From: a virus | Taxonomy: Duplodnaviria; Heunggongvirae; Uroviricota; Caudoviricetes | DNA length: 13,750 bases | Direction: 5' to 3' (one strand) | Virus record (IMG/VR): IMGVR_UViG_2698536576_000010 | Location: 1-13,750 of that record | Shown: positions 1 to 13,750 of the stretch, in pieces | How the letters are laid out: each line of letters starts with the position of its first letter | How positions within the stretch are numbered: the stretch's first letter is position 1 | Program-made: the position numbers and the translations under genes | Notes under the pieces: model-generated | The model's input: only the letters and a program-made list of their open reading frames with translations | What the model was told of the DNA's origin: nothing | The model's database searches: none

Positions 1-114
1 ATTAATATATTCATCAGACCAGCCAGTATATTCATACGTAACTGCCTCATAATAAAAACAACGCATATTACCCGGTACTGTAGCCAGCCCATTTTCATCA
101 AAAACAGGTTTCAT
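1..114 (-). CDS. tfa: Tail fibre assembly protein (Tfa-like), N-terminal 38 codons only; gene runs off the window edge
   Basis: ATG at 114..112 overlaps the TAA of the upstream tail-fibre ORF (TAATG coupling). Translation [38 protein letters not shown] resembles the N-termini of phage tail-fibre chaperones. Partial. Confidence 0.55.
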   Translation of the reverse strand, partial: MKPVFDENGLATVPGNMRCFYYEAVTYEYTGWSDEYIN

Positions 115-935
115 TATGCAGCCCTCACAATATAATTAAAGGCGATGTTACGTGGACGGTTTTCATTAGCTGTTGGCACGACACGAGAGGCGTCGAATCC
201 AAGGTCATCGGTTTTGCCTATAGCAGTTGTGTTATTCGCCATTGTCGCTGATCGTGTTCCTGCATCGTAAAAAGCCCCTCTGATTGCATCAAAAGACATA
301 CCGATCCCGCCATCTGCGAATCCCTCAATATTTCTTATTGCATCCCCCTGTGAAGATAATAATTGTCGCCCGGCATCCACTCCACGTCCGTCATCCCAGC
401 CACGAATAAATTCACCGCGTAAATCAGGCAATTTATTTGTCGGGTAAACCTTTGCCAGTTCCGGGTATTCTTCAGCAGAAAAAGCCGCACCATTGCATTT
501 CAGCCAGCCTGTTGGCGGAGTGGCTGAAGGCCACGGAACAGGGACACCAACAGGTAATGCAGAGCCTTCTCCCAAACCAAGGTTTTCGAGAGCCGTTTGC
601 ACAGTGCCATCCGATTTGATATCGCCAAACGGATTCTTGCGGCTCAGGTATTCAACAGCAAACCCCGATCCCAGCAATTCAACAAAACCGGGCAGATCAC
701 CATTATCAAGCACATCCCGTTGCGTTTTATCACTTACAAACTGGGCCAGAGCTGCAGCAATAAAGCTGGCCTGCCGAATAACCTTATTGACTTGCGCACT
801 GGATGCTTTCCCTGCTGTAAATCCGGATATAAGCGCAGGCAACGCTTCCCATTCCTCCTGCGACATAACATTGGCATTTCGATCAGTTGCAAACGCTTTA
901 AAGTCATTTTTCGCCATCAGAGTAATACTCCCCAT
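114..935 (-). CDS. stf: Phage side-tail-fibre protein, C-terminal (receptor-binding) region, 273 aa
   Basis: C-terminal half ([16 protein letters not shown]...[19 protein letters not shown]...[12 protein letters not shown]) matches my recollection of the lambda Stf C-terminus and the tail-collar motif. Followed by a translationally coupled tfa. Weak SD at its ATG and an in-frame stop 12 nt upstream. Confidence 0.7.
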
Positions 936-1084
936 GCCCCTACATCAAAACCACTGATGAATTCGTTATCCATATCAAAACCAAAAAATTTAGAGCCTTC
1001 CGATGGAGTTTCCACCGAAGGTGTTTCAATGCCCCCCGCCCATACCCCGGCGGCTTTTACTGTTAGATACCGCCAATACCCGTT
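917..1084 (-). pseudogene. Start-less open frame (3' remnant of a deleted late-region gene?) overlapping the tail-fibre start
   Basis: The frame is open from about 1084 down to TGA at 919..917 ([55 protein letters not shown]) with no plausible start or SD. It begins about where ren stops resembling lambda ren. Confidence 0.3.
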
Positions 1085-1340
1085 TCATCGCGGCACTCTG
1101 GCGACACTCCTTAAAAATCAGGTTCGTGCTCATCTTTCCTTCCCGTTCTTCCCTGGTAGCAAACCGGTAATACACCGTTCGCCAGACCTTACCTTCGATA
1201 ACCAGAAGACCTGCCCGTGCCATTTTAGCCGCGGCCTGATTTATGCTGGTTACTGTTGCGCCTGTTAGCGCGGCAACGTCCGGCGCACAGAAGCTATTAT
1301 GCGTCCCCAGGTAATGAATAATTGCCTCTTTGCCCGTCAT
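1026..1340 (-). CDS. ren: Ren-like protein (lambda ren homologue) with a divergent, extended C-terminus
   Basis: MTGKEAIIHYLGTHNSFCAPDVAALTGATVTSINQAAAKMARAG... matches recalled lambda Ren. ATG overlaps the P stop. The last ~13 residues (SNSKSRRGMGGGH) and the length (104 aa, versus about 96 as I recall) differ from lambda. Confidence 0.8.
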   Translation of the reverse strand: MTGKEAIIHYLGTHNSFCAPDVAALTGATVTSINQAAAKMARAGLLVIEGKVWRTVYYRFATREEREGKMSTNLIFKECRQSAAMKRVLAVSNSKSRRGMGGGH

Positions 1341-2038
1341 ACACTTGCTCCTTTCAGTCCGAACTTAGCTTTGATTTCTGCGATCTTCGCCAGAGCCTGT
1401 GCACGATTTAGAGGTCTACCGCCCATGACAGGAAGTTGTTTTACTGGTTCAGGGATCGCCTCACCACGGTTAATTCTCGCAGTCATATGGACAAGCTCAT
1501 CTGCGGCCTTACGGCGTAATTCCGCATCAGTAAGCGCATTGGCCCGCATGTTCTGATACAGGTTGGTAACCAGCCAGTAGTGCGCGTTTGATTTCCACGG
1601 ATAAGACTCCGCATCCGGATACAGGCCTCGCTTCCGGCAATACTCGTAAACCATATCAACCAGCTCGCTGGCGTTTGGCAGCCCGGCGGTAACGGATGCT
1701 TCTTCCCGGCACCAGGCAACAAACTGCCCGGGTGATGGCAGGAATGGTCGATTCTGCCGACGGGCTACGCGCATTCCAGCGTTAACCTGTTCCATCGTGG
1801 TGATCCCATTTTCCCGGAAAGCCAGAACCCACTGGCGGCGGATTTCGTTCAGTTCATTCTGGTCACGGTTAGCCAAGCTCGCCGGGAAAGTTGCCAGTAA
1901 CTGGCTGAACACACCATTGATGATCTGCGCTACCTGTTGTACCTGCGGCTTTTCGTCGTACTGTTCCGGCATGTTGTTGGCGATCCGGCGCATCTGCTCA
2001 CGGTCAAAGTTAACCATCTGTGCGGCGATGTTTTTCAT
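1337..2038 (-). CDS. P: Replication protein P (DnaB helicase loader), 233 aa
   Basis: Full-length match to recalled lambda P (MKNIAAQMVNFDREQMRRIANNMPEQYDEKPQVQQ...). Start overlaps the O stop. Confidence 0.95.
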   Translation of the reverse strand: MKNIAAQMVNFDREQMRRIANNMPEQYDEKPQVQQVAQIINGVFSQLLATFPASLANRDQNELNEIRRQWVLAFRENGITTMEQVNAGMRVARRQNRPFLPSPGQFVAWCREEASVTAGLPNASELVDMVYEYCRKRGLYPDAESYPWKSNAHYWLVTNLYQNMRANALTDAELRRKAADELVHMTARINRGEAIPEPVKQLPVMGGRPLNRAQALAKIAEIKAKFGLKGASV

Positions 2039-2934
2039 AAATCCACCCCGTAAATCCAGTCAGTGTTTGTCAGGTCGAGTTTTGGTTTGCTGGCTGTCAC
2101 GCCTGCCTGTTGCTTGTTACGGTTGATTTCGAGCTGGGTCCACTTGTCGCGGAGTTTGGCCGGACTCAGCACGTTACCGGACCAGAAGTTGTCCTGGCAG
2201 GCCCAGCGGAAAAGCACACACATATCGCGGTGGTTACGTCCGTCACGTTCACGCATCAGGCGGATATCGTTAGCCCACCCAGCAAAATTCGGTTTTCTGG
2301 CTGATGGCGCGATGGTCTTCACCATGTCAAACATCCACTCTGCGGCGGTCAGGTCTTCTGCTGTTCCCCACTTGCTGCCGCTCTGAATTGCAGCATCCGG
2401 TTTAACCACAGAAAGATCGTTTTCTGGCTGGTCAGAGGATTCGCCAGAATTCTCGGACGAATAATCTTTTCTTTTTTCTTTTGTAATAGTGTCTTTTGTG
2501 TCTCCCTGTTTTGAGGGATAGCAATCCCCCAATTTGAGGGATGTTTTATCCCTCGTTTTAGGGGATTTTCCCTCGTTTTGAGGGATACACCATTCTGAGA
2601 TGTTTTTATTTGGTCCAAACATGCCGCCTTGCTGCTTGATAATATTCATTCTGACGAGTTCTAACTTGGCTTCATTGCACCGTTTGACAGGTAACTTTGT
2701 AATCTCGCTAAGTTGAGAATCGGTGATTCTGTCCATTGGTTTATTCCACCCATAGGTTTTACGCAGAATGGCAAGCAGCACTTTAAACTGTCGCTTGGTC
2801 AGATCTGCGCCCGAATAAGCCTCAAGCAGCATATTTGATAGTCTGGCGTAACCATCATCGAGATCTGCCACATTACGCTCCTGTCCGGCAAAGTTACCTC
2901 TGCCGAAGTTGAGTATTTTTGCTGTATTTGTCAT
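2035..2934 (-). CDS. O: Replication initiator protein O, 299 aa
   Basis: Matches recalled lambda O (MTNTAKILNFGRGNFAGQERNVADLDDGYARLSNMLLEAY...). Contains the ori iterons internally. Confidence 0.95.
   Translation of the reverse strand: MTNTAKILNFGRGNFAGQERNVADLDDGYARLSNMLLEAYSGADLTKRQFKVLLAILRKTYGWNKPMDRITDSQLSEITKLPVKRCNEAKLELVRMNIIKQQGGMFGPNKNISEWCIPQNEGKSPKTRDKTSLKLGDCYPSKQGDTKDTITKEKRKDYSSENSGESSDQPENDLSVVKPDAAIQSGSKWGTAEDLTAAEWMFDMVKTIAPSARKPNFAGWANDIRLMRERDGRNHRDMCVLFRWACQDNFWSGNVLSPAKLRDKWTQLEINRNKQQAGVTASKPKLDLTNTDWIYGVDL
2461..2590. repeat. Lambda-type replication origin: four about 18-19-bp iterons (2503..2586) plus an adjacent AT-rich tract (2461..2500) inside O
   Basis: Direct repeats of TCCCTC-N-GAGGGA type (tccctgttttgaggga, atcccccaatttgagggat, atccctcgttttaggggat, tccctcgttttgagggat), next to ataatcttttcttttttcttttgtaatag. 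Confidence 0.9.
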
Positions 2935-2966
2935 AATGACTCCTGTTGATAGATCCAGTAATGACC

Positions 2967-3260
2967 TCAGAACTCCATCTGGATTTGTTCAGAACGCTCG
3001 GTTGCCGCCGGGCGTTTTTTATTGGTGAGAATCGCAGCAACTTGTCGCGCCAATCGAACCATGTCGTCGTCAACGACCCCCCATTCAAGAACAGCAAGCA
3101 GCATTGAGAACTTTGGAATCCAGTCTCTCTTCCACCTGCTGATCTGCGACTTATCAACTCCCACAGCTTCCGCTGTCTTCTCAGTTCCAAGCATTGCGAT
3201 TTTGTTAAGCAACGCACTCTCGATTCGTAGAGCCTCGTTGCGTTTGTTTGCACGAACCAT
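2967..3260 (-). CDS. cII: Transcriptional activator CII, 97 aa
   Basis: MVRANKRNEALRIESALLNKIAMLGTEKTAEAVGVDKSQISRWKRDWIPKFSMLLAVLEWGVVDDD... matches recalled lambda CII. The upstream in-frame extension in the ORF track is rejected. Confidence 0.93.
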   Translation of the reverse strand: MVRANKRNEALRIESALLNKIAMLGTEKTAEAVGVDKSQISRWKRDWIPKFSMLLAVLEWGVVDDDMVRLARQVAAILTNKKRPAATERSEQIQMEF

Positions 3261-3339
3261 ATGTAAGTATTTCCTTAGATAACAATTGATTGAATGTATG
3301 CAAATAAATGCATACACCATAGGTGTGGTTTAATTTGAT

Positions 3340-3371
3340 GCCCTTTTTCAGGGCTGGAATGTGTAAGAGCG
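3340..3371 (-). promoter_or_regulatory. nutR (boxA 3371..3363, boxB hairpin 3354..3340 on the - strand)
   Basis: Minus-strand reading gives CGCTCTTAC (boxA), then GCCCTGAAAAAGGGC (boxB), between cro and cII, as in lambda. Confidence 0.8.
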
Positions 3372-3379
3372 GGAATGTC

Positions 3380-3595
3380 TTAAGCGGCTTTGTGTTCCGG
3401 AGGGAACACGTCATCAAGACTGACTTTTGCGCCTAACTTGTTTAGGCATGCAACAAGAGCGCGGCATGTTTTAAGGTCTGGGAAGCGACGACCAGATTCC
3501 CAATGCCCAATAGCTCCCTGTGTGCATCCAACCGCCTTAGCAAGTGTTGTTTGAGAGATATTCAGTGACTCTCGATATTTTCGTAGGTTGCTCAT
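3380..3595 (-). CDS. cro: Cro-like HTH repressor, 71 aa, non-lambda specificity
   Basis: Internal start MSNLRKYRESLNISQTTLAKAVGCTQGAIGHWESGRRF... with GGAGGG SD. Divergent from cI. The HTH recognition region TQGAIGHW parallels TQGGIGHW in the cI N-terminal domain. The longer ORF 3380..3835 is rejected. Confidence 0.8.
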   Translation of the reverse strand: MSNLRKYRESLNISQTTLAKAVGCTQGAIGHWESGRRFPDLKTCRALVACLNKLGAKVSLDDVFPPEHKAA

Positions 3596-3712
3596 ATGCC
3601 CTCCATAGTAACCATGAGACAATAATACGATATGTACTTTTGGAATGCAAACAAAAAATACATCTTGTGCATGGATGGTTTTAGTACAGAGCGTAATAAT
3701 AAGGATATGAAA
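3596..3712. promoter_or_regulatory. Immunity control region OR: pR on - strand (-35 TTGCAT 3650..3645, 17-bp spacer, -10 TATTAT 3627..3622), a putative weak pRM on + strand, and 2-3 putative operator dyads
   Basis: Consensus-like sigma70 elements sit at the right distance upstream of cro. Imperfect dyads of TAC-N5-GTA type lie at about 3621..3640, 3659..3669 and 3679..3698. Operator assignment is tentative. Confidence 0.55.
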
Positions 3713-4366
3713 ATGAAATGGTATGAACTGGCTAGATCCAGAATGAAAGAGCTCGGCATAACTCAAGAGAAGTTGGCTGAAGAGCTTGGTATGACGCAGG
3801 GTGGAATTGGTCACTGGTTGCGCGGATCTCGTCATCCATCTCTTGACGAGATTGGTGTGGTGTTTAAATACCTTGGTATTGATAACGTCTCATTCAACCA
3901 CGACGGTACATTTTCACCTGTTGGCGAATACTCATCTGCCCCCGTTAAAAAACAATATGAGTACCCTGTTTTTTCTCATGTTCAGGCCGGGATGTTCTCG
4001 CCTGAGCTTAGAACCTTTACCAAAGGTGATGCGGAGAGATGGGTCAGCACAACCAAAAAAGCCAGTGATTGTGCGTTTTGGCTTGAAGTTGAAGGTAATT
4101 CCATGACCGCACCAACAGGATCCAAGCCAAGCTTTCCTGACGGGATGTTAATTCTCGTTGACCCTGAGCAGGCTGTTGAGCCAGGTGATTTCTGCATAGC
4201 CAGACTTGGTGGTGACGAGTTTACCTTCAAGAAACTGATCAGGGATAGCGGTCAGGTGTTCCTACAACCACTAAACCCGCAATATCCAATGATCCCATGC
4301 AATGATAGCTGTTCCGTTGTAGGGAAAGTTATCGCCAGCCAGTGGCCAGAAGAGACGTTTGGGTGA
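3707..4366 (+). CDS. cI: CI-type prophage repressor: non-lambda N-terminal HTH domain fused to a lambda-like C-terminal dimerisation/autocleavage domain
   Basis: C-terminal ~135 aa ([21 protein letters not shown]...[51 protein letters not shown]) matches recalled lambda CI almost exactly. N-terminus [37 protein letters not shown] is different. Start is 3707 or 3713 (AAGGA SD favours 3713). Confidence 0.9.
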
Positions 4367-4391
4367 TAGGAATGGATGTTAAGGATTAAGA

Positions 4392-5438
4392 ATGTCAGCG
4401 ATTGATCAACCTGCGCAATATGTTATCAAGTCAGAAGACGACTTTGTATCTTTTGTAACAGAAATGCTCGGAAGGAAGGATATCGACTCAAGCGACTTCA
4501 CATTCCCTAACGTAGTTTTCAGTGGATGGCCAAAGATCAATATTAATGTAAAAGGCGATCCAAATAGATATAATTCTTCATTGACTGCGTCAATGCTTTT
4601 TGGTATGGCAGAGCTTACGCATGAAATACAAAAAGCATTTACGGTAGTCAGTCACAGCACTCATAATCGGCAGAAGCTAAAAGATGCAGAGAAAGGTTTG
4701 CTGGATATTGTCTACCGAATAAGCGAAGGCTCAAGCCAAGCGGATGGTGACTCAGATCCGATTGTAAACGGAGTGGTGACAGTGTTTACTCAAGCGATAG
4801 GCAAAATGACAGGAAGGCAAGCACTATGCGCCGTCGCCGCTATCGTCTTAGCTGCCAGCACGGTAGGCTATAAGTGGATCAATGAGTACTACGAAACACA
4901 GCGACATGACCAAGATTCTCAGGTGCAATTGGTGGAAAAAAGCACCAAAGCGGTAAACGAAGCACAAGACAATGTGCTCAAGTTGTTGATTAGCGGTCAA
5001 ACAAACATTAGCAGAGAGGTTCTGGCTCACGGCGAGGATGGTAAAAGCAAGTTGCTTAAAAAGCTTGCTCAAGACTCGTCAGTTGAGAGGGTAACAATTG
5101 GTCAGAGAGTGGTAAATAGAGAACAGTTGAATACCTTAAACCAAAGACAATCAATTGATCGAAAAAAGGAAACTAGAAGAGATAACTTTTATGTCACGGG
5201 CGTTCGTCGCTCGGGAGAAACAAATCAGGACATAAATATTGACGTCATAAGGGTTTCAAATGGTGAATCTTTCACCATAAAAACCTCAGCCGACATAACA
5301 TCTACTGATGAGCTTCTTGAGTTTTTGAATGCTGTAGCCAAAGAATCAACTGTTGAAATTTCATACCTAGAGGTTGTAGAAAATGGGCACATTTCAACAG
5401 GGCAATTGATAAATATATTCCCCAGCGAACCAGAGTGA
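4392..5438 (+). CDS. Hypothetical 348-aa protein in the cI-distal slot occupied by rexAB in lambda; one central hydrophobic segment; candidate exclusion/defence gene
   Basis: Long ORF with an AAGGA SD 25 bp after the cI stop, on the same strand. AT-rich codon usage by eye. Hydrophobic stretch ALCAVAAIVLAASTVGY. No family recognised. Intrinsic terminator immediately downstream. Confidence 0.7.
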   Translation: MSAIDQPAQYVIKSEDDFVSFVTEMLGRKDIDSSDFTFPNVVFSGWPKININVKGDPNRYNSSLTASMLFGMAELTHEIQKAFTVVSHSTHNRQKLKDAEKGLLDIVYRISEGSSQADGDSDPIVNGVVTVFTQAIGKMTGRQALCAVAAIVLAASTVGYKWINEYYETQRHDQDSQVQLVEKSTKAVNEAQDNVLKLLISGQTNISREVLAHGEDGKSKLLKKLAQDSSVERVTIGQRVVNREQLNTLNQRQSIDRKKETRRDNFYVTGVRRSGETNQDINIDVIRVSNGESFTIKTSADITSTDELLEFLNAVAKESTVEISYLEVVENGHISTGQLINIFPSEPE

Positions 5439-5447
5439 TGCACTCCA

Positions 5448-5477
5448 AACCCGGCCTCAGCGCCGGGTTTTCTTTTT
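5448..5477 (+). terminator. Rho-independent terminator ending the cI-plus-348-aa transcription unit
   Basis: aaCCCGGCctcagcGCCGGGtt stem-loop followed by TTTTCTTTTT. Confidence 0.75.
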
Positions 5478-5489
5478 CCAAAATATAAA

Positions 5490-5575
5490 CCCATTAAATA
5501 CAAAGCGTTATAAAAAACTAATTATATTTAGAACATTTTGTATTGACTCGATAAAGTACAAATCGTACTATTTAG
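5490..5575 (+). promoter_or_regulatory. pL promoter (-35 TTGACT 5543..5548, 17-bp spacer, -10 TACTAT 5566..5571) with putative OL operator dyads
   Basis: Near-consensus sigma70 promoter upstream of nutL and N. Dyad AGTAC-AAATC-GTACT (5555..5569) overlaps the spacer and -10; a second weaker dyad at about 5499..5509. Confidence 0.7.
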
Positions 5576-5611
5576 CCATCAGCAGGACGCACTGACCACC
5601 ATTGAAGGTGA

Positions 5612-5642
5612 GGCTCTTAAAAATTTAGCCCTGAAGAAGGGC
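5612..5642 (+). promoter_or_regulatory. nutL (boxA-like GGCTCTTA 5612..5619; boxB GCCCTGAAGAAGGGC 5628..5642)
   Basis: BoxB hairpin identical to my recollection of lambda nutL boxB; boxA with one change; located between pL and N. Confidence 0.85.
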
Positions 5643-5752
5643 AGCATTCAAAGCAGAAGGCTTTGAGTAGCGCGAAATGCAGCTGCAAGACAGCAACCGT
5701 GGAGATAAGCATCACGGCGCGTTACTCAAAGCTAACTGACAGGAGAATCCAG

Positions 5753-6085
5753 ATGGATGCACAAGCACGCCGCCGCGAACGTCGCGCAGAGAAACAGGCT
5801 CAATGGAAAGCAGCAAATCCCCTGTTGGTTGGGGTAAGCGCAAAACCAGTTAACCGCCCTATTCTCTCGCTGAATCGCAAACCGAAATCACGAGTAGAAA
5901 GCGCACTGAATCCGATAGACCTTACGGTGCTGGCTGAATACCACGAACAGATTGAAAGCAACCTGCAACGTATTGAGCGCAAGAATCAGCGCACATGGTA
6001 CAGCAAGCCACGCTGTGAAATGGGTGTGACTTGCTCAGGCCGCCAGAAGCAACGCGGAAAATCAATTCCAGCTTATTACGATTGA
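5753..6085 (+). CDS. N: Antitermination protein N, 110 aa
   Basis: MDAQARRRERRAEKQAQWKAANPLLVGVSAKPVNRPILSLNRKPKSRVESALNPIDLTVLAEYH... matches recalled lambda N, with an arginine-rich motif. AGGAG SD. The upstream extension to 5663 is rejected. Confidence 0.93.
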   Translation: MDAQARRRERRAEKQAQWKAANPLLVGVSAKPVNRPILSLNRKPKSRVESALNPIDLTVLAEYHEQIESNLQRIERKNQRTWYSKPRCEMGVTCSGRQKQRGKSIPAYYD

Positions 6086-6277
6086 GGTGAGCCATGCTCA
6101 AGAAAGTCAAACGCCGACTTTACAAAGAAGGTAGATATTCATGCCAAATGCGACACAACAAAATGGAGTGTCGATGATTGGTGTAACTGGATAGATAGAT
6201 ACGGAACTTGGTGGGATAAATAACAGGTAACTTAAGCGTATTTACTTTCGCAGCAAACAACTTATTTGAGGTGATAT

Positions 6278-6364
6278 ATGGAAGAAGAATTTGAAGAGTT
6301 CGAAGAGCATCCTCAGGATGTGATGGAACAATACCAGGACTATCCGTATGACTACGACTATTGA
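6278..6364 (+). CDS. Small acidic protein, 28 aa (lambda orf28-like)
   Basis: Strong SD (GAGGTGA) 6 nt before the ATG. MEEEFEEFEEHPQDVMEQYQDYPYDYDY. Overlaps the ral start, as I recall orf28 does in lambda. Below the ORF-track size cutoff. Confidence 0.45.
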   Translation: MEEEFEEFEEHPQDVMEQYQDYPYDYDY

Positions 6365-6527
6365 TAAAAATCAATGGTGTGGACAATTCAAGCGATGCAA
6401 TGGATGCAAGCTGCAATCGGAATGCATGGTTAAGCCTGAAGAAATGTTTCCTGTAATGGAAGATGGGAAATATGTCGATAAATGGGCAATACGAACGACG
6501 GCAATGATTGCCAGAGAACTTGGTTAA
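6348..6527 (+). CDS. ral: Restriction-alleviation protein Ral, 59 aa
   Basis: MTTTIDKNQWCGQFKRCNGCKLQSECMVKPEEMFPVMEDGKYVDKWAIRTTAMIARELG matches recalled lambda Ral except for a shorter C-terminus. Below the ORF-track size cutoff. Confidence 0.75.
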   Translation: MTTTIDKNQWCGQFKRCNGCKLQSECMVKPEEMFPVMEDGKYVDKWAIRTTAMIARELG

Positions 6528-6683
6528 CAGAACAACAAAGCTGCCTGATAGTGGCCTTTATTTTTGGCATAAATAACAGAATAAACACTGCACTGTGTAT
6601 TCATTCCAACGAGTGAATACACGGAGCAATGTCGCTCGTAACTAAACAGGAGCCGACTTGTTCTGATTATTGGAAATCTTCTT

Positions 6684-6711
6684 CGCCCTCCAGTGTGAGG
6701 GCGATTTTTTA
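6684..6711 (+). terminator. Rho-independent terminator between ral and ea10 (tL2-like)
   Basis: CGCCCTC-cagtgt-GAGGGCG hairpin followed by TTTTTT. Confidence 0.65.
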
Positions 6712-6730
6712 TCTATGAGGATATGAATAG

Positions 6731-7099
6731 ATGTCAAACATCAAAAAATACATCATTGATTACGACTGGAAAGCATCAATAGAAATTGAAATCGACCATG
6801 ACGTAATGACAGAGGAAAAACTTCACCAGATTAATAATTTCTGGTCAGACTCTGAATACCGACTCAATAAACACGGCTCTGTATTAAATGCTGTATTAAT
6901 CATGCTGGCGCAACATGCTCTGCTTATAGCAATTTCAAGCGACTTAAATGCATATGGTGTTGTGTGTGAGTTCGACTGGAATGATGGAAATGGTCAGGAA
7001 GGATGGCCTCCAATGGATGGTAGCGAAGGAATAAGAATTACCGATATCGATACATCAGGAATATTTGATTCAGATGATATGACTATCAAAGCCGCCTGA
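6731..7099 (+). CDS. ea10: Ea10-like early protein, 122 aa
   Basis: Position between ral and cIII and length match lambda ea10. Sequence MSNIKKYIIDYDWKASIEIEIDHD... is consistent with my recollection, unverified. Confidence 0.7.
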   Translation: MSNIKKYIIDYDWKASIEIEIDHDVMTEEKLHQINNFWSDSEYRLNKHGSVLNAVLIMLAQHALLIAISSDLNAYGVVCEFDWNDGNGQEGWPPMDGSEGIRITDIDTSGIFDSDDMTIKAA

Positions 7100-7171
7100 G
7101 CGCGGCGTTACCGCATACCAATAACGCTTCACTCGAGGCGTTTTTCGTTATGTATAAATAAGGAGCACACC

Positions 7172-7336
7172 ATGCAATATGCCATTGCAGGGTGGCCTGT
7201 TGCTGGCTGCCCTTCCGAATCTTTACTTGAACGAATCACCCGTAAATTACGTGACGGATGGAAACGCCTTATCGACATACTTAATCAGCCAGGAGTCCCA
7301 AAAAATGGATCAAACACTTATGGCTATCCAGACTAA
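7172..7336 (+). CDS. cIII: CIII (FtsH/HflB inhibitor), 54 aa
   Basis: [54 protein letters not shown] matches recalled lambda CIII. AAGGAG SD. Not in the ORF track because it is under 60 aa. Confidence 0.9.
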   Translation: MQYAIAGWPVAGCPSESLLERITRKLRDGWKRLIDILNQPGVPKNGSNTYGYPD

Positions 7337-7448
7337 ATTCACTATCGCCACTTTTATTGGCGATGAAAAGATGTTTCGTGAGGCCGTCGACGCTTATAAA
7401 AAATGGATATTAATACTGAAACTGAGATCAAGCAAAAGCATTCACTAA
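7305..7448 (+). CDS. kil: Kil (host cell-division inhibitor), 47 aa
   Basis: [47 protein letters not shown] matches recalled lambda Kil. Overlaps the cIII 3' end and the gam 5' end, as in lambda. Confidence 0.85.
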
Positions 7449-7819
7449 CCCCCTTTCCTGTTTTCCTAATCAGCCCGGCATTTCGCGGGCGATATTTTCA
7501 CAGCTATTTCAGGAGTTCAGCCATGAACGCTTATTACATTCAGGATCGTCTTGAGGCTCAGAGCTGGACGCGTCACTACCAGCAGATCGCCCGTGAAGAG
7601 AAAGAGGCAGAACTGGCAGACGACATGGAAAAAGGCCTGCCCCAGCACCTGTTTGAATCGCTATGCATCGATCATTTGCAACGCCACGGGGTCAGCAAAA
7701 AAGCCATTACCCGTGCGTTCGATGACGATGTTGAGTTTCAGGAGCGCATGGCAGAACACATCCGGTACATGGTTGAAACCATTGCTCACCACCAGGTTGA
7801 TATTGATTCAGAGGTATAA
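7403..7819 (+). CDS. gam: Gam (RecBCD inhibitor), 138 aa
   Basis: [55 protein letters not shown]... matches recalled lambda Gam. Confidence 0.95.
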
Positions 7820-7824
7820 AACGG

Positions 7825-8610
7825 ATGAGTACAGCACTCGCAACGCTGGCTGGGAAGCTGGCTGAACGTGTCGGCATGGATTCTGTCGACCCACAGGAAC
7901 TGATCACCACTCTTCGCCAGACGGCATTTAAAGGTGATGCCAGCGATGCGCAGTTCATCGCATTGTTGATCGTCGCCAACCAGTACGGCCTTAATCCGTG
8001 GACGAAAGAAATTTACGCCTTCCCTGACAAGCAGAACGGCATCGTTCCGGTGGTGGGCGTTGATGGCTGGTCCCGCATCATCAATGAAAACCAGCAGTTT
8101 GATGGCATGGACTTTGAGCAGGACAATGAATCCTGCACATGCCGGATTTACCGCAAAGACCGCAATCATCCGATCTGCGTTACCGAGTGGATGGATGAAT
8201 GCCGCCGCGAACCATTCAAAACCCGCGAAGGCAGAGAAATCACGGGGCCGTGGCAGTCGCATCCCAAACGGATGTTACGGCATAAAGCCATGATTCAGTG
8301 TGCCCGTCTCGCCTTCGGATTTGCTGGTATCTATGACAAGGATGAAGCCGAGCGCATTGTCGAAAATACCGCATACACTGCAGAACGTCAGCCGGAACGC
8401 GACATCACTCCGGTTAACGATGAAACCATGCAGGAGATTAACACTCTGCTGATTGCCCTGGATAAAACATGGGATGACGACTTATTGCCGCTCTGTTCCC
8501 AGATATTTCGCCGCGACATTCGCGCATCGTCAGAACTGACACAGGCCGAAGCAGTGAAAGCTCTTGGATTCCTGAAACAGAAAGCCACTGAGCAGAAGGT
8601 GGCAGCATGA
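7825..8610 (+). CDS. bet: Bet (Red-beta single-strand annealing recombinase), 261 aa
   Basis: [59 protein letters not shown]... matches recalled lambda Bet. Confidence 0.95.
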
Positions 8611-9287
8611 CACCGGACATTATACTGCAGCGTACCGGGATCGACGTGAGAGCTGTCGAACAGGGGGATGATGCATGGCACAAATTACGGCTCGGCGTCA
8701 TCACCGCTTCAGAAGTTCACAACGTGATAGCAAAGCCCCGATCAGGAAAGAAGTGGCCTGACATGAAAATGTCCTACTTCCACACCCTGCTGGCTGAGGT
8801 TTGCACCGGTGTGGCTCCGGAAGTTAACGCTAAAGCGCTGGCCTGGGGAAAACAGTACGAGAACGACGCCAGAACCCTGTTTGAGTTCACTTCCGGCGTA
8901 AATGTTATTGAATCCCCGATCATCTATCGCGACGAAAGTATGCGCACCGCCTGCTCTCCCGATGGTTTATGCAGTGACGGCAATGGCCTTGAGCTGAAAT
9001 GCCCGTTTACCTCCCGGGATTTCATGAAGTTCCGGCTCGGTGGTTTCGAGGCCATAAAGTCGGCTTACATGGCCCAGGTGCAGTACAGCATGTGGGTGAC
9101 GCGAAAAGATGCCTGGTACTTTGCCAACTATGACCCGCGTATGAAGCGTGAAGGCCTGCATTATGTCGTGGTTGAGCGGGATGAAAAGTACATGGCGAGT
9201 TTTGACGAGATGGTGCCGGAGTTCATCGAAAAAATGGACGAGGCACTGGCTGAAATTGGTTTTGCATTTGGGGAGCAATGGCGATGA
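8607..9287 (+). CDS. exo: Exo (lambda exonuclease, Red-alpha), 226 aa
   Basis: [62 protein letters not shown]... matches recalled lambda Exo. Start overlaps the bet stop. Confidence 0.95.
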
Positions 9288-9445
9288 AGCATCCTCACGA
9301 TAATATCCGGGTAGGCACGATCACTTTCGTCTACTCCGTTACAAAGCGAGGCTGGGTATTTCCCGGCCTTTCTGTTATCCGAAATCCCCTGAAAGCACAG
9401 CGGCTGGCTGAGGAGATAAATAATAAACGGGGGCTGTATGACTGA
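9284..9445 (+). CDS. Small early protein, 53 aa (lambda orf60a-like)
   Basis: ATG overlaps the exo stop (ATGA). [53 protein letters not shown]. Position and start resemble the ORF after exo in lambda. Under the ORF-track size cutoff. Confidence 0.5.
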
Positions 9446-9995
9446 TTTCACCGGAAGCAATACTCCTGCCGAACATCGCGACAGCTGGCGCACACCACCA
9501 GAGATTTTTGCTGCGCTTAATGCAGAGTTCGTTTTTCAACTTGATGCTGCCGCCAGCGAAAAAAACCGACTATGTCGGCTTTTTATCTCACAGGAGCAGA
9601 ACACATTAACCACTTCATGGCCTGAAGCAATGGGATATGCCTCTGGTTATGTCTGGTTGAATCCACCATACAGCAATATTTCCCCTTTTGTGAAAAAGGC
9701 AGCCACTGAAAACAAATTCAGTAGTGTGGGATGTGTAATGTTATTGCCTGCTGACACATCTGTCGGATGGTTTCATGAAGCGATACAAACCGCCAGTGAG
9801 GTCAGATTCATCACGGCAGGACGACTGGCATTTATTAACCCACTCACTGAGAAACCCGTCAGTGGAAATAATAAAGGCTCGATGCTCATTATCTGGCACC
9901 CATACCCCCGTACACACTGCCACTTTACGACCGTTGATCGTGGAGAGTTGATGGCGTTCGGCTCAAGGATTCTTGCCCGTCGGGAGGCTGCATGA
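9438..9995 (+). CDS. Phage-type DNA N6-adenine methyltransferase (Dam family), 185 aa, orphan
   Basis: Catalytic NPPY motif (WLNPPYSNISPFVKKA), size and overall pattern typical of phage Dam-family N6A methyltransferases. No adjacent restriction endonuclease. Confidence 0.8.
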   Translation: MTDFTGSNTPAEHRDSWRTPPEIFAALNAEFVFQLDAAASEKNRLCRLFISQEQNTLTTSWPEAMGYASGYVWLNPPYSNISPFVKKAATENKFSSVGCVMLLPADTSVGWFHEAIQTASEVRFITAGRLAFINPLTEKPVSGNNKGSMLIIWHPYPRTHCHFTTVDRGELMAFGSRILARREAA

Positions 9996-10075
9996 CAACC
10001 ACGGAATGCATTTTTCTGGCAGCGGGCTTCATATTCTGTGTGCTTATGCTTGCCGACATGGGACTTGTTCAATGA
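9992..10075 (+). CDS. Putative 27-aa hydrophobic (single-helix) membrane peptide
   Basis: GGGAGG SD 5 nt upstream. MTTTECIFLAAGFIFCVLMLADMGLVQ. ATGA overlaps at both ends link it to the methyltransferase stop and the next ORF start. Confidence 0.35.
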   Translation: MTTTECIFLAAGFIFCVLMLADMGLVQ

Positions 10076-10287
10076 CACCTCAGCAGGAAAACGCCCTTCG
10101 CAGCATTGCCCGTCAGGCTAATTCTGAAATCAAAAAAGCCAGACAGCAGTTTCCGGATAAAAACGTCGATGACATTTGCCGTAGCGTACTAAAGAAGCAC
10201 CGCGAAACGGTAACGCTGATGGGATTCACACCGACTCATTTAAGCCTGGCGATCGGCATGTTAAACGGCGTCTTTAAGGAACGGTGA
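10072..10287 (+). CDS. Hypothetical early protein, 71 aa
   Basis: MTPQQENALRSIARQANSEIKKARQQFPDKNVDDICRSVLKKHRETVTLMGFTPTHLSLAIGMLNGVFKER. The ORF-track entry 9973..10287 is trimmed to the internal ATG that does not overlap the methyltransferase. Confidence 0.55.
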   Translation: MTPQQENALRSIARQANSEIKKARQQFPDKNVDDICRSVLKKHRETVTLMGFTPTHLSLAIGMLNGVFKER

Positions 10288-10289
10288 AC

Positions 10290-10379
10290 ATGAAAAGCAA
10301 AATCATCAGGGAGCTACAGGCTCCTTTTTTATTGTTCGCATTCATCCTCAAGCGTATTAACCAACAATTCAGGGATTAA
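10290..10379 (+). CDS. Possible small ORF, 29 aa
   Basis: MKSKIIRELQAPFLLFAFILKRINQQFRD. Tightly packed between neighbours, with no strong SD. Speculative. Confidence 0.25.
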   Translation: MKSKIIRELQAPFLLFAFILKRINQQFRD

Positions 10380-10385
10380 TGGAAG

Positions 10386-10604
10386 ATGGCAGACATCATT
10401 GATTCAGCATCAGAAATCGAAGAATTACAGCGCAATACAGCAATAAAAATGCGTCGTCTGAACCACCAGGCTATATCTGCCACTCATTGTTGTAAGTGTG
10501 GCGATCCCATAGATGAACGAAGACGCCTGGCCGTTCAGGGTTGTCGGACTTGTGCAAGTTGCCAGGAGGAGATCGAACTTAAGAACAAACAATGGGGATT
10601 GTGA
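10386..10604 (+). CDS. TraR/DksA-family C4 zinc-finger protein, 72 aa
   Basis: CxxC-(17)-CxxC motif (CCKCGDPIDERRRLAVQGCRTCASC) at the C-terminus of a short helical protein, typical of phage TraR-like RNA-polymerase-binding factors. Confidence 0.75.
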   Translation: MADIIDSASEIEELQRNTAIKMRRLNHQAISATHCCKCGDPIDERRRLAVQGCRTCASCQEEIELKNKQWGL

Positions 10605-10651
10605 TGGCCTCAAAGCAGCAAATTTCAACATCGTCCAACTGAGGTGTAAAA

Positions 10652-10930
10652 ATGTTCAGAATCATTTTTCCTAACACCTGGTACGTCGACCACCACGGCA
10701 CTCCCTGCAAAATCCTGCGTTCTACCCACAACAAAGTTCACTACATCCGAAAAGGCAGAACATGTATCGCCAGCATGTTCCGCTTTAATCATGACTTTGA
10801 ACCTGTGAATAAAGCTGATGCAGATCGGATAGCAGAAGAGATCGAAACGGCAGAACACATTAAGAAGTTACGTGACATGCGTTCAAAAAGCAGAGGTAAC
10901 CATGGAATCATACAGCCTCACACTCGATGA
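10652..10930 (+). CDS. Hypothetical early protein, 92 aa
   Basis: GAGGTG SD 5 nt upstream of the ATG. Overlaps the xis start. No family recognised. Confidence 0.55.
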   Translation: MFRIIFPNTWYVDHHGTPCKILRSTHNKVHYIRKGRTCIASMFRFNHDFEPVNKADADRIAEEIETAEHIKKLRDMRSKSRGNHGIIQPHTR

Positions 10931-11252
10931 GGCCTGTCAGTTTCTTAAGATATCCAGACCAACCGCCACCAACTGGATACGAACAGGCCGCCTACAGGCA
11001 ACACGCAAAGACCCCACTAAACCAAAATCTCCTTACCTCACAACGCGACAAGCCTGCATTGCGGCGCTTCAGTCTCCGCTGCATACTATCAAGGTGAGCG
11101 CGGGTGATGGCATAACAGAGGAAAGAAAATGTCACTCTTCCGCAGAAGTGAAATATGGTACGCCAGTTTCACATTGCCGAACGGTAAAAGATTTAAACAG
11201 TCTCTTGGAACAAAGGACAAAAGGCAGGCGACAGAGCTCCATGACAAGCTAA
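10902..11252 (+). CDS. xis: Excisionase (P22-type Xis), 116 aa
   Basis: [38 protein letters not shown]... is an HTH excisionase directly upstream of and overlapping int, with the length of P22 Xis. The ORF-track entry is trimmed to the ATG at 10902. Confidence 0.8.
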
Positions 11253-12292
11253 AGGCTGAAGCATGGCGGGTCAGCAAACTTGGTGAAATACCTGATATGA
11301 CGTTCGAGGAGGCGTGTATCAGGTGGCTCGAAGAGAAAGCACATAAAAAATCACTGGACGATGACAAAAGCCGGATCGGATTCTGGCTTCAACATTTCGC
11401 AGGAATGCAACTAAGAGACATTACTGAATCAAAAATTTATTCAGCAATGCAGAAAATGACGAACCGGCGTCATGAGGAAAACTGGAAACTCAGGGCAGAA
11501 GCATGCAGAAAAAAAGGGAAACCTGTTCCAGAATACACGCCAAAACCAGCGTCCGTTGCAACGAAGGCTACGCATCTTTCATTTATAAAGGCCCTACTAA
11601 GAGCCGCAGAGCGTGAATGGAAAATGCTGGATAAGGCACCAATTATTAAAGTGCCTCAACCAAAGAATAAACGGATCCGCTGGCTGGAGCCCCATGAAGC
11701 ACAAAGGCTGATTGATGAATGTCCGGAGCCATTAAAGTCTGTTGTTGAATTTGCACTGGCAACAGGTTTAAGACGCTCGAACATCATCAACCTTGAATGG
11801 CAACAAATAGATATGCAGCGCCGGGTGGCATGGATAAACCCGGAAGAGAGTAAATCAAACCGCGCAATCGGCGTTGCGCTGAATGATACTGCATGTCGCG
11901 TTTTGAAAAAACAAATCGGGAATCATCACCGTTGGGTATTTGTGTACAAGGAAAGCTGTACCAAACCAGACGGAACGAAAGCGCCAACAGTAAGGAAGAT
12001 GCGGTATGACGCAAACACAGCCTGGAAAGCGGCGCTGAGACGAGCTGGTATTGATGATTTCAGATTTCACGACTTGAGACACACCTGGGCAAGTTGGCTG
12101 GTTCAAGCCGGAGTCCCGTTGTCAGTGTTACAGGAAATGGGTGGCTGGGAGTCTATCGAAATGGTTCGTCGATATGCTCACCTCGCGCCTAATCACCTTA
12201 CCGAACACGCACGGCAAATAGACTCGATTCTGAACCCATCGGTCCCAAATTTGTCCCAGTCAAAAAATAAGGAAGGTACTAATGATGTGTAA
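11129..12292 (+). CDS. int: Tyrosine integrase (P22-type Int), 387 aa
   Basis: [46 protein letters not shown]... with the C-terminal catalytic region [39 protein letters not shown] (R...HxxR...Y). Matches recalled P22 Int, which targets thrW. Confidence 0.95.
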
Positions 12293-12306
12293 CTTATTGA
12301 TTTAAA

Positions 12307-12382
12307 TGGTGCCGATAATAGGAGTCGAACCTACGACCTTCGCATTACGAATGCGCTGCTCTACCAACTGAGCTATATCGGC
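12307..12382 (-). tRNA. thrW: tRNA-Thr (anticodon CGU), thrW-type; phage attachment site at its 3' end
   Basis: Minus-strand sequence GCCGATATAGCTCAGTTGGTAGAGCAGCGCATTCGTAATGCGAAGGTCGTAGGTTCGACTCCTATTATCGGCACCA is 76 nt, folds as a cloverleaf with anticodon loop TTCGTAA and T-loop GGTTCGA, and ends in CCA. Confidence 0.92.
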
Positions 12383-12433
12383 CCTGAAAGGACATGTTCA
12401 CGAACGTGAATCACGGTGGACAAGGTTAAAACT

Positions 12434-12492
12434 AACCGGGCGATGCGTCAATGGCCTTGTGAATCAAATGGCTACTTTTGCATCACCCGGTT
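12434..12492. other. Imperfect long inverted repeat between proA and the tRNA (possible proA terminator or tRNA leader structure)
   Basis: AACCGGGCGATGC ... GCATCACCCGGTT arms separated by about 33 nt; T-rich on the + side only. Role uncertain. Confidence 0.3.
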
Positions 12493-12496
12493 TTAT

Positions 12497-13750
12497 TTAC
12501 GCACGAATGGTGTAATCACCAATGCCGATCCACTTGTAAGTGGTCAGTGCTTCCAGCCCCATTGGGCCACGCGCGTGGAGTTTTTGTGTGCTTACCGCCA
12601 CTTCCGCACCCAGACCAAACTGGCCGCCGTCGGTAAAACGCGTAGAGGCGTTAACGTAAACAGCGGACGAATCCACTTCGTTAACAAAACGCTGGGCGTT
12701 GCGCATATCGCGGGTCAGGATCGCATCGGAGTGTTGTGTGCCGTGTTCACGAATATGGGCGATGGCATCGTCAAGATCGCTGACGATTTTGACGTTCAAA
12801 TCTAATGACAGAAACTCATCGTCATACTCTTCGGCTTTAACAGCAACCACCTTCGCAGGGCCTGCCTGCAACTGCGCCAGTGCAGCTGCATCTGCGTGTA
12901 ATGTCACGCCGCTTTCCGCCATTTGTTTGCTTAATGCGGGCAGGAAGCTATCGGCGATGTTTTTATTCACCAGCAACGTTTCAACCGTATTACATGTGCT
13001 CGGACGCTGAGTTTTCGCGTTGACGATCACTTTTAATGCTTCAGCGATCTCTACACTTTCATCAACGTAAATATGGCATACGCCTATACCACCTGTGATC
13101 ACCGGGATTGTCGACTGTTCACGGCACAGTTTATGCAAACCAGCGCCACCACGCGGGATCAGCATGTCGATGTATTTATCCATACGCAGCATTTCACTGA
13201 CCAGCGCACGGTCAGGATTATCAATCGCCTGCACGGCACCCGCCGGTAAGCCGCAGGATTTCAGGGCGTCCTGAATCACCGCCACCGTTGCAGCGTTAGT
13301 GCGACACGTTTCTTTGCCACCGCGCAGGATCACCGCATTACCGGTTTTCAGGCACAGCGAAGCGACATCAACCGTCACGTTCGGGCGCGCTTCATAAATC
13401 ACGCCAATAACCCCCAGCGGTACGCGACGACGCTCAAGACGCAGGCCGCTGTCCAGTACGCTGCCATCGATTACCTGCCCCACCGGATCGGCGAGGTTAC
13501 ACACCTGGCGCACATCATCGGCAATGCCTTTCAGCCGTGCGGGCGTCAGTGCCAGACGGTCAAGCATCGCTTCGCCAAGGCCATTGGCACGCGCGTCAGC
13601 AACATCCTGGGCGTTAGCGTTGAGGATGATTTCGCTTTGTGCTTCCAGTTCATCGGCGATTTTTTCCAGCACGCGATTTTTTTCGCGGCTGGAGAGTTGC
13701 GCTAATTTATACGAGGCTTGCTTCGCGGCAATGCCCATTTGTTCCAGCAT
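12497..13750 (-). CDS. proA: Gamma-glutamyl phosphate reductase (host gene), 417 aa, complete
   Basis: Full-length match to recalled enterobacterial ProA ([58 protein letters not shown]...). ATG at 13750..13748. Confidence 0.95.

Follow-up and report, generated by a model that had tools for sequence, protein, structure and literature searches.

The rexAB slot of a lambdoid prophage remnant

We analysed a stretch of 13,750 nucleotides (positions 1 to 13,750 of the IMG/VR virus record IMGVR_UViG_2698536576_000010; hereafter, the window), which is a lambdoid E. coli prophage remnant adjoining thrW and proA, and within it a gene for a protein of 348 amino acids (aa) that follows the cI-type repressor gene on the same strand (Table 1). 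The identical RefSeq protein (WP_001272876.1) is annotated as 'hypothetical protein'. The order of the features (cI, 348-aa gene, terminator, pL, nutL, N) gives the gene the position that rexA and rexB have in lambda, namely between cI and the terminator tImm on the cI strand. The gene ends 8 nt before a hairpin terminator with a 9-bp stem (6 GC pairs) at 5447-5470 and a T-run (fold, -15.5 kcal/mol; z, -2.9), and 28 nt of this terminator (AACCCGGCCTCAGCGCCGGGTTTTCTTT) are identical at 28 of 28 positions to the lambda sequence directly 3' of rexB (tImm). A Shine-Dalgarno sequence, AAGGA, lies at 4381-4385, 6 nt 5' of the ATG. An earlier note on this DNA, made from the letters alone, had proposed an open reading frame (ORF) at these coordinates with its own AAGGA sequence 25 nt after the cI stop, a rexAB-like placement and a strong terminator before pL; reading of the coordinates and the sequence, the synteny with lambda and the terminator values agree with all of these.

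In lambda, the rex genes are transcribed with cI. Because of this analogy, the 25-nt gap, the gene's own ribosome-binding site and the lack of a detected terminator before 5447, the 348-aa gene would be transcribed with cI from pRM; a scan for promoters and terminators detected no terminator-like site in the 25-nt spacer. Inside the ORF, on the coding strand, a weak terminator-like hairpin (4579-4595; 3 GC pairs) and a promoter-like site (4638-4667; 9/12 matches) were seen, and they are probably chance occurrences since the regional counts were at or near the expectation from shuffled sequences. Note that lambda rexA contains an internal promoter.

Table 1. Positions of the features in the window and of the predicted parts of the 348-aa protein.
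Feature	Position	Strand	Basis or remark
348-aa gene (RefSeq WP_001272876.1, PHROG 6191)	4392..5438	+	ATG start, TGA stop; cassette between cI stop and terminator
cI-to-ORF spacer, 25 nt	4367..4391	+	cI stop TGA 4364-4366, ATG 4392
Intrinsic terminator (tImm homologue)	5447..5477	+	Terminator scan, RNA folding, 28/28 nt match to lambda
N-terminal alpha/beta domain (residues 1-138)	4392..4805	+	Most conserved part
Probable single transmembrane helix GRQALCAVAAIVLAASTVGYKWI (residues 141-163)	4812..4880	+	Hydropathy
Polar helical stretch, poorly conserved (residues 164-230)	4881..5081	+	AlphaFold2; low-confidence linker 173-181
Predicted OB-fold domain, b1-b2-b3-helix-b4-b5 (residues 255-345)	5154..5426	+	AlphaFold2, fold matches
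cI-type (LexA/S24) repressor gene	3671..4366	+	Peptidase_S24 E 9e-29, HTH_3 E 8e-11; RefSeq 'LexA family protein' WP_096216393.1 at these coordinates
pL-like promoter TTGACT-17-TACTAT	5543-5571	+	Promoter scan; far slot boundary
nutL boxB	5628-5642	+	Lambda comparison; far slot boundary
N antiterminator gene	5753-6085	+	Pfam N36 E 3e-25; RefSeq annotation
ren	1026-1340	minus	Gene map
P, O, cII, cro		minus	Gene map
Early-left genes	between N and int	+	Gene map
int	11129-12292	+	Gene map
tRNA-Thr(CGT) (thrW)	12307-12382		After int
proA	12497-13750		After tRNA-Thr

The GC content of the 348-aa gene is 42.0% (40.1% at third codon positions), which is below the values of cI (47.1%), N (51.5%) and the window as a whole (47.8%). 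The gene is thus AT-richer than its flanks, as had been judged by eye, although within its operon ea10 has an even lower value (38.5%). In a comparison with a homologue of 87% identity (L015; L numbers are our handles for the compared records), the ratio of nonsynonymous to synonymous substitution rates (dN/dS) was 0.039 (dN, 0.073; dS, 1.9). The ORF is a genuine gene, subject to strong purifying selection.

Other E. coli prophages contain the cI allele of the window (98-99% identity) but not the 348-aa gene. When the slot is empty (L072), the cI stop is followed by about 33 nt, a variant of the same terminator (approximately 2300-2325) and N; the stem of this variant carries a compensatory change (CCCGAC...GTCGGG versus CCCGGC...GCCGGG in the window), which is small but direct evidence that the tImm hairpin is functional and selected. 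Behind a cI gene of 91% identity (L073), the slot (3276-5185) is filled by a DUF3024 gene, a 153-aa ORF and a Stk kinase gene (annotated as partial), and the DUF3024 product matches the PADLOC candidate PDC-S43 (E 3e-38). A DUF3024 gene (2672-3013) and a homologue of the 348-aa gene lie side by side in a further prophage (L022), and thus the two are separate cassettes. From the empty-slot and other-cargo alleles of the same cI, the 348-aa gene can be described as an insertion of about 1.07 kb exactly between the cI stop and tImm, in agreement with the swappable cassette that had been supposed. Strain MLI023K1 has the identical combination of cI and the 348-aa gene in a prophage at the lambda attachment site (ybhC side), whereas that of the window is located at thrW/proA, which indicates that the cassette moves between lambdoid backbones. 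The cI-linked slot looks like a small hotspot for defence cargo.

Family size and genomic surroundings

Phage phi458, which grows on a K-12 strain (record host, E. coli MC1061), carries a 99.9%-identical gene (Orf11, 'hypothetical protein'). Identical or near-identical genes were found in 18 of 5426 complete E. coli genomes, and the exact protein WP_001272876.1 is present on at least 1000 contigs of a large collection, in E. coli and Salmonella. By an exhaustive HMMER scan (E <= 1e-3), the family comprises 337 cluster representatives at the 50% identity level; among the matches listed, most members are 310-380 aa long and match over most of their length, and full-length homologues reach down to 18% identity. 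Two other E. coli variants are carried by mEp332 and by the PhiR12 phages (hosts, MG1655 and E. coli C). The window protein has a full-length match to PHROG 6191 ('unknown function'; E 5.8e-36; residues 7-342 versus profile positions 5-331 of 338).

No significant match to the window protein was obtained in Pfam, NCBIfam or PADLOC-DB v2, and the Pfam scan of 138 relatives gave scattered single hits only. Searches of PDB with the sequence and with the family profile gave no credible match; the best profile match, a titin Ig domain (E 0.018), was judged spurious. Names for family members were not found in the sources searched, so that the statement that no family could be recognised is upheld, in that no curated library names the protein. 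The homologues of PhiR12 and mEp332 bear the GenBank label 'T2SS GspM containing protein' (T2SS, type II secretion system), which could not be reproduced: T2SSM (PF04612) had no match at E <= 1 in the window protein or in those of PhiR12_2, mEp332, Pmp14, L056 and L059, and none at E <= 0.01 in the 138 relatives. Moreover, GspM has a short N-terminus, an N-terminal transmembrane (TM) helix and a periplasmic alpha-beta domain, whereas the window protein has a predicted central TM helix (141-163) and a predicted C-terminal OB-fold. The homologue in L022 (3060-4105; 88% identical) lacks one base, and its reading frame contains 6 in-frame stops beyond the resulting shift; the cause is either decay to a pseudogene or a sequencing error in the IMG/VR contig.

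Recurrence of homologues next to cI-type repressors, which the earlier note had suggested looking for, was found: at least 11 further phages and prophages, most of them unrelated, have a relative directly 3' of such a repressor. The homologues of PhiR12_2 and mEp332 are repressor-linked despite an identity of about 18-25% (for mEp332, hhalign probability 100%, E 3e-41). In four IMG/VR lambdoids (L015, L024, L031, L040), the upstream neighbours are all S24 plus HTH_3 proteins, and in L022 one gene separates the repressor and the homologue. The arrangement recurs in a lambdoid of Pantoea whose replication module is of another kind (L069), in Photorhabdus, where the repressor is a short HTH_3 protein (L047), and in a Mu-like prophage of a Desulfobulbaceae bacterium (L056), in which the repressor gene and the homologue are oriented divergently from the genes of the Mu A/B transposase. 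A metagenomic prophage (L059) has the order repressor, 214-aa ORF, homologue, 162-aa ORF, integrase.

Other members lie elsewhere. Some are at the prophage edge, convergent with int and next to host genes (L032-35, L051, L066), or next to host genes beyond tail-fibre, invertase or DinI genes (L045, L061, L068); others adjoin smpB (L026-29, L050), and still others are among restriction-like genes. In the prophages near smpB, the homologue is always followed on its own strand by a conserved ORF of 114 aa (MSLKYAHEKFHTAVLTLAGHG...; L026-L029; L037, 2353-2697; L029, 5084-5428). This ORF has no Pfam or PADLOC match and is absent from the window, and it may be a partner gene in this subfamily. In the Pasteurella phage Pmp14 (L004 2665-5029), a helix-turn-helix (HTH) gene and a reverse transcriptase (RT) gene (PADLOC RT_VI, E 2e-88; annotated in the record merely as 'polymerase') are followed 85 nt downstream by the homologue, and the pair is apparently a type VI retron inside a phage genome. 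As published, type VI retrons are complete as RT, HTH and a small toxin, without the 348-aa family; therefore, the Pmp14 retron is regarded as co-located defence cargo and not as a sign of membership. No retron RT is beside the 348-aa gene in the window, where the flanks are cI, the terminator and N.

As for the rest of the window, int adjoins tRNA-Thr(CGT) and proA, and thus the element sits at the thrW site. The true start of cI may be an internal ATG (3707 or 3713). The sequence from the pL transcript start through nutL is nearly identical to that of lambda, and the operator region differs from lambda, which indicates a different immunity. On the minus strand, ren directly abuts a tail-fibre gene fragment (114-935), the intervening nin, Q, lysis, head and tail genes being missing; the same junction is present in NZ_LR882057.1 (L074 10691-13244), with IS3 elements and a broken pinE close by. 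Despite the loss of the late genes, cI, the 348-aa gene and the early-left operon are still intact.

Predicted architecture of the protein

The structure was predicted with AlphaFold2 from an alignment of 138 diverse relatives (pLDDT, 88.4; pTM, 0.77); this model superseded an earlier one made from 25 close homologues (pLDDT, 63.7). It comprises an N-terminal alpha/beta domain, a central hydrophobic helix, a polar helical stretch and a C-terminal domain. The N-domain has a mean pairwise identity of 28.5% among distant members, compared with 16-19% for the remainder of the protein, and contains the motifs F43-x-G-W-P, G55, S63/T65, Q76, R81, Y83, L96-T-x-x-E-K and G113-S114-S/T115. Only G55, L96, G113 and M139 are conserved in at least 90% of the 138 relatives. 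Position 114 is Ser in 121 of the 138 and Cys in 16, and the members with Cys include mEp332, which itself has no GWP motif (residues 113-115 correspond to 4728-4736 of the window). An exchange of Ser and Cys is typical of nucleophile positions; the possible partner residues are not invariant. No fold relative of the N-domain was detected, the search having been made within the whole model only, and Foldseek against PDB and BFVD did not find a full-length structural relative.

The window protein has one hydrophobic segment (peak Kyte-Doolittle value, 1.72 at residues 145-163), as had been noticed from the translation, and the hydropathy peak is at the same alignment position in 137 of the 138 relatives. 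In these relatives the uncharged stretch has a median length of 19 residues (at least 18 aa in 115/138) and the mean Kyte-Doolittle value is 1.71 (1.6 or more in 97/138); the hydrophobic moment is low (0.46), and an aromatic residue is found at the C-terminal end in 121/138. The conserved position, the uncharged length, the low moment and the aromatic end point to a probable TM helix rather than to an amphipathic core helix. K/R residues are enriched on the N-side of the helix in the enterobacterial clade (3 versus 1), and the protein has no N-terminal signal peptide.

The C-terminal region had been expected to be charged and helical. This had to be revised, since the AlphaFold2 model is helical only at residues 164-230 or so and folds residues 255-345 or so into a beta-rich OB-fold, in which five strands close into a barrel and a helix separates the third strand from the fourth. 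Among the best fold matches are OB proteins that are periplasmic or secreted (SilF, AB5-toxin B subunits). For the OB-fold superfamily as a whole (SilF/CusF, AB5-toxin B subunits, SSB/PriB), the identity is 10-15%, and the resemblance is one of fold only.

Possible functions and their weighing

The protein WP_001272876.1 is listed in Table S10 of the DefensePredictor study (DeWeirdt, Mahoney, Laub, Science 2026, PMC13092281) as 'Predicted novel defense gene', with a mean log-odds of 6.86 (minimum, 5.17; maximum, 8.95; cut-off, 4) and with WP_021530618.1 as the cluster representative. The validated systems of that study (DS-1 to DS-46) are those which, on a plasmid in MG1655, reduced the plating of at least 1 phage. 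WP_001272876.1 is absent from the 94 tested units (Table S6, PMC13092281), in which no tested single gene is of the right length, and no sequence in the supplements contains the family motifs. A literature search with mEp332, phi458 and the accession yielded no functional statement on the 348-aa family, and PMC12315714 does not mention the gene. HepS (PMC13043305) and SNIPE are different proteins. Thus, of the earlier claim that the gene is 'undescribed', the part that stands is that no paper was found to describe or test the family; the anti-phage hypothesis, however, is already raised computationally by others.

The nearest comparison by position is lambda rexA-rexB, which lies 3' of cI on the cI strand before the same terminator (28/28 nt); both loci are presumably co-expressed with the repressor in lysogens, and both have a membrane component (predicted in the case of the 348-aa protein). 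RexA and RexB act by depolarising the membrane and exclude, among other phages, rII-type mutants. However, lambda has two genes and the window has one. RexB has several TM helices, whereas the 348-aa protein has one predicted TM helix, a predicted OB-fold and an N-domain without a detected relative. The earlier observation that the protein does not resemble RexA, RexB or a kinase was substantiated: the family profile A2 gave hhalign probabilities of 0.06% for RexA and 0.3% for RexB, there was no Pfam match to either, and no Pkinase match was obtained at E <= 1. The stretch between cI and the terminator is also where the 933W-type Stk kinase and DUF3024 (PDC-S43) are encoded, next to close relatives of the cI allele (L073, L022); the 348-aa protein has no DUF3024 domain. 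A functional precedent is DS-34 ('CITO'), which consists of a cI repressor gene and an AbiZ-like transmembrane protein and was experimentally protective (PMC13092281), and hence cI-linked TM proteins can confer defence. In both DS-34 and the window, the repressor gene is followed by a gene for a protein of about 320-350 aa with a central TM region (a predicted one in the case of the window); however, the proteins are unrelated in sequence (hhalign probability, 0.1%), and that of DS-34 has a coiled-coil and an AbiZ/DUF6161-like TM region without an OB-fold.

SNIPE, a membrane-bound nuclease that cuts phage DNA during injection (bioRxiv 10.1101/2025.11.03.685801), shares the concept of a single-pass inner-membrane anti-phage protein with a binding domain at the site of genome entry. 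Its parts (N-terminal TM helix, DUF4041, GIY-YIG nuclease) are all cytoplasmic, whereas the 348-aa protein has a central TM helix by prediction, no nuclease or DUF4041 match and a C-terminal domain that is probably periplasmic. The proposed periplasmic recognition domain would also act at the same step as the classical superinfection-exclusion proteins, with which no homology was found in the libraries and which are likened here by description. P22 SieA, HK97 gp15, T4 Imm/Sp and TP-J34 Ltp are such membrane proteins that block genome entry; they are mostly small and are not known to have a conserved cytoplasmic domain of 140 aa.

From the sequence and its context, we consider that the 348-aa gene may be a prophage accessory ('moron') gene for a membrane-anchored exclusion or abortive-infection protein expressed in the lysogen (probability, about 0.5); for an anti-phage role of the protein as such, we would put the odds at even or slightly better. 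The protein would be a single-pass inner-membrane protein. The lack of a signal peptide and the N-terminal domain of 140 residues suggest an insertion with the N-terminus inside and the C-terminus outside, by which the OB-fold would be in the periplasm; this location fits the N-side K/R enrichment of the enterobacterial clade and the periplasmic or secreted OB matches. The conservation of the N-domain and the variability of the stalk and OB-fold suggest that the former is a constant module for effector action or signalling and that the latter form a module which diversifies for recognition. Accordingly worded as a scheme, the cytoplasmic N-terminal domain (1-138) would be the constant part and the periplasmic helical stalk and OB-fold (about 164-345) the specificity part, which would recognise either the entry machinery that an incoming phage uses or one of the phage's own components (tail tip, tape measure or ejection proteins); the outcome would be either blocked genome entry (superinfection exclusion) or an abortive response via the membrane or the N-domain. 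This outside-in mechanism is considered doubtful. Similarly tentative is a wider form of the proposal, namely that the family could be a new, widespread single-gene anti-phage system in which the periplasmic OB-fold senses the injection apparatus and signals across the TM helix to a cytoplasmic effector, and which lambdoid, Mu-like and Pasteurella phages put under repressor control.

Several points weigh against the exclusion or abortive-infection role. The protein has no homology to validated defence proteins (no hit in PADLOC-DB v2), and PADLOC over the 138 relatives gave no consistent match, the best being single members at E ~1e-3 or weaker. The N-domain has no invariant polar residue that would indicate a known catalysis, S114 being the nearest to one. 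The TM status and the topology are predictions from hydropathy statistics: the segment is below the Kyte-Doolittle threshold of 1.6 in 41/138 relatives, that of the window protein is Ala-rich, borderline and moderately hydrophobic, and the positive-inside signal of the whole family is ambiguous (K/R, 1.8 on the N-side versus 2.4 on the C-side). In the model, the pTM of 0.77 may reflect two halves packed together in a manner unfit for an intervening membrane. The location at prophage ends and next to repressors is only suggestive, since such slots also hold non-defence cargo. DefensePredictor may draw on the same kind of context signal, so that its machine-learning score cannot be counted as independent of the context evidence, and only about half of the comparable predictions were validated (14 of the 28 tested units with log-odds of 5-9 gave defence; our count from Table S6, PMC13092281).

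Alternatively, the protein might be a membrane-tethered cytoplasmic nucleic-acid binder, in which the helix anchors or oligomerises at the inner face and the OB-fold binds phage single-stranded DNA, RNA or replication intermediates, with membrane damage or another abortive response as the result. Such a protein would be an analogue, in one polypeptide, of RexA (DNA sensor) and RexB (membrane effector) and would still be anti-phage with a different topology and sensing step; we regard it as quite unlikely. The moron sites at prophage ends, by tail fibres and integrases, also carry virulence and fitness cargo, and the 348-aa protein, with its probable membrane anchor and a binding domain that is probably periplasmic, could also serve lysogenic conversion, as an envelope protein for host fitness, stress tolerance, adhesion, biofilm or virulence in the manner of lambda bor and lom. 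Deletion of the whole phi458 prophage changed biofilm formation and virulence in avian pathogenic E. coli, an effect that was not attributed to the 348-aa gene (PMC9701743). We think a non-defence role of this kind rather improbable.

The same-strand linkage to cI in many phages would also suit a protein that assists the lysis-lysogeny switch or the induction of the phage which carries it, for example via the membrane proteases FtsH/HflKC that control CII and CIII, and a second role of this kind was proposed for RexAB (Thomason et al. 2021, as cited in PMC12315714). The Pfam similarities that would support it (fvmX3-analog, E 0.16; FtsH_ext, E 0.93) are very weak and far below significance, and the link to CII/CIII control was rejected on this ground. 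Moreover, many members of the family have no repressor nearby, being located at the ends of prophages or outside them, and the 348-aa gene is missing from prophages that share its cI allele, so that the gene is dispensable for the switch; a role as a switch helper is very unlikely. Least credible is that the gene is a selfish cassette of the addiction or toxin type, or a decaying ORF without function, and of no benefit to host or phage. The low GC content, the patchy occurrence (18/5426 complete E. coli genomes) and the frameshifted homologue in L022 could be read in this way; however, dN/dS is 0.039, the architecture and the length are conserved across the 337 clusters, the gene is intact in a remnant without any late genes, and the slot holds no antitoxin-like partner.

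We thus return to repressor-linked prophage exclusion cargo, from a family without a characterised relative, as a reasonable hypothesis for the 348-aa gene on the present sequence evidence. The slot behind the repressor is a swappable cargo bay, which may be empty or may contain DUF3024 plus Stk or the 348-aa gene. In lambda it holds rexAB, the oldest known abortive-infection system. One cargo family, which has no name, domain annotation or solved relative, recurs behind repressors in lambdoids and in Mu-like elements. If the 348-aa protein is not protective, it would be a cautionary case for context-based and machine-learning prediction of defence. If it is protective, it would bring in a defence family whose N-terminal domain is unannotated and whose sensing may be of a rare, outside-in kind, and it would explain why remnants without late genes keep cI and the 348-aa gene intact.

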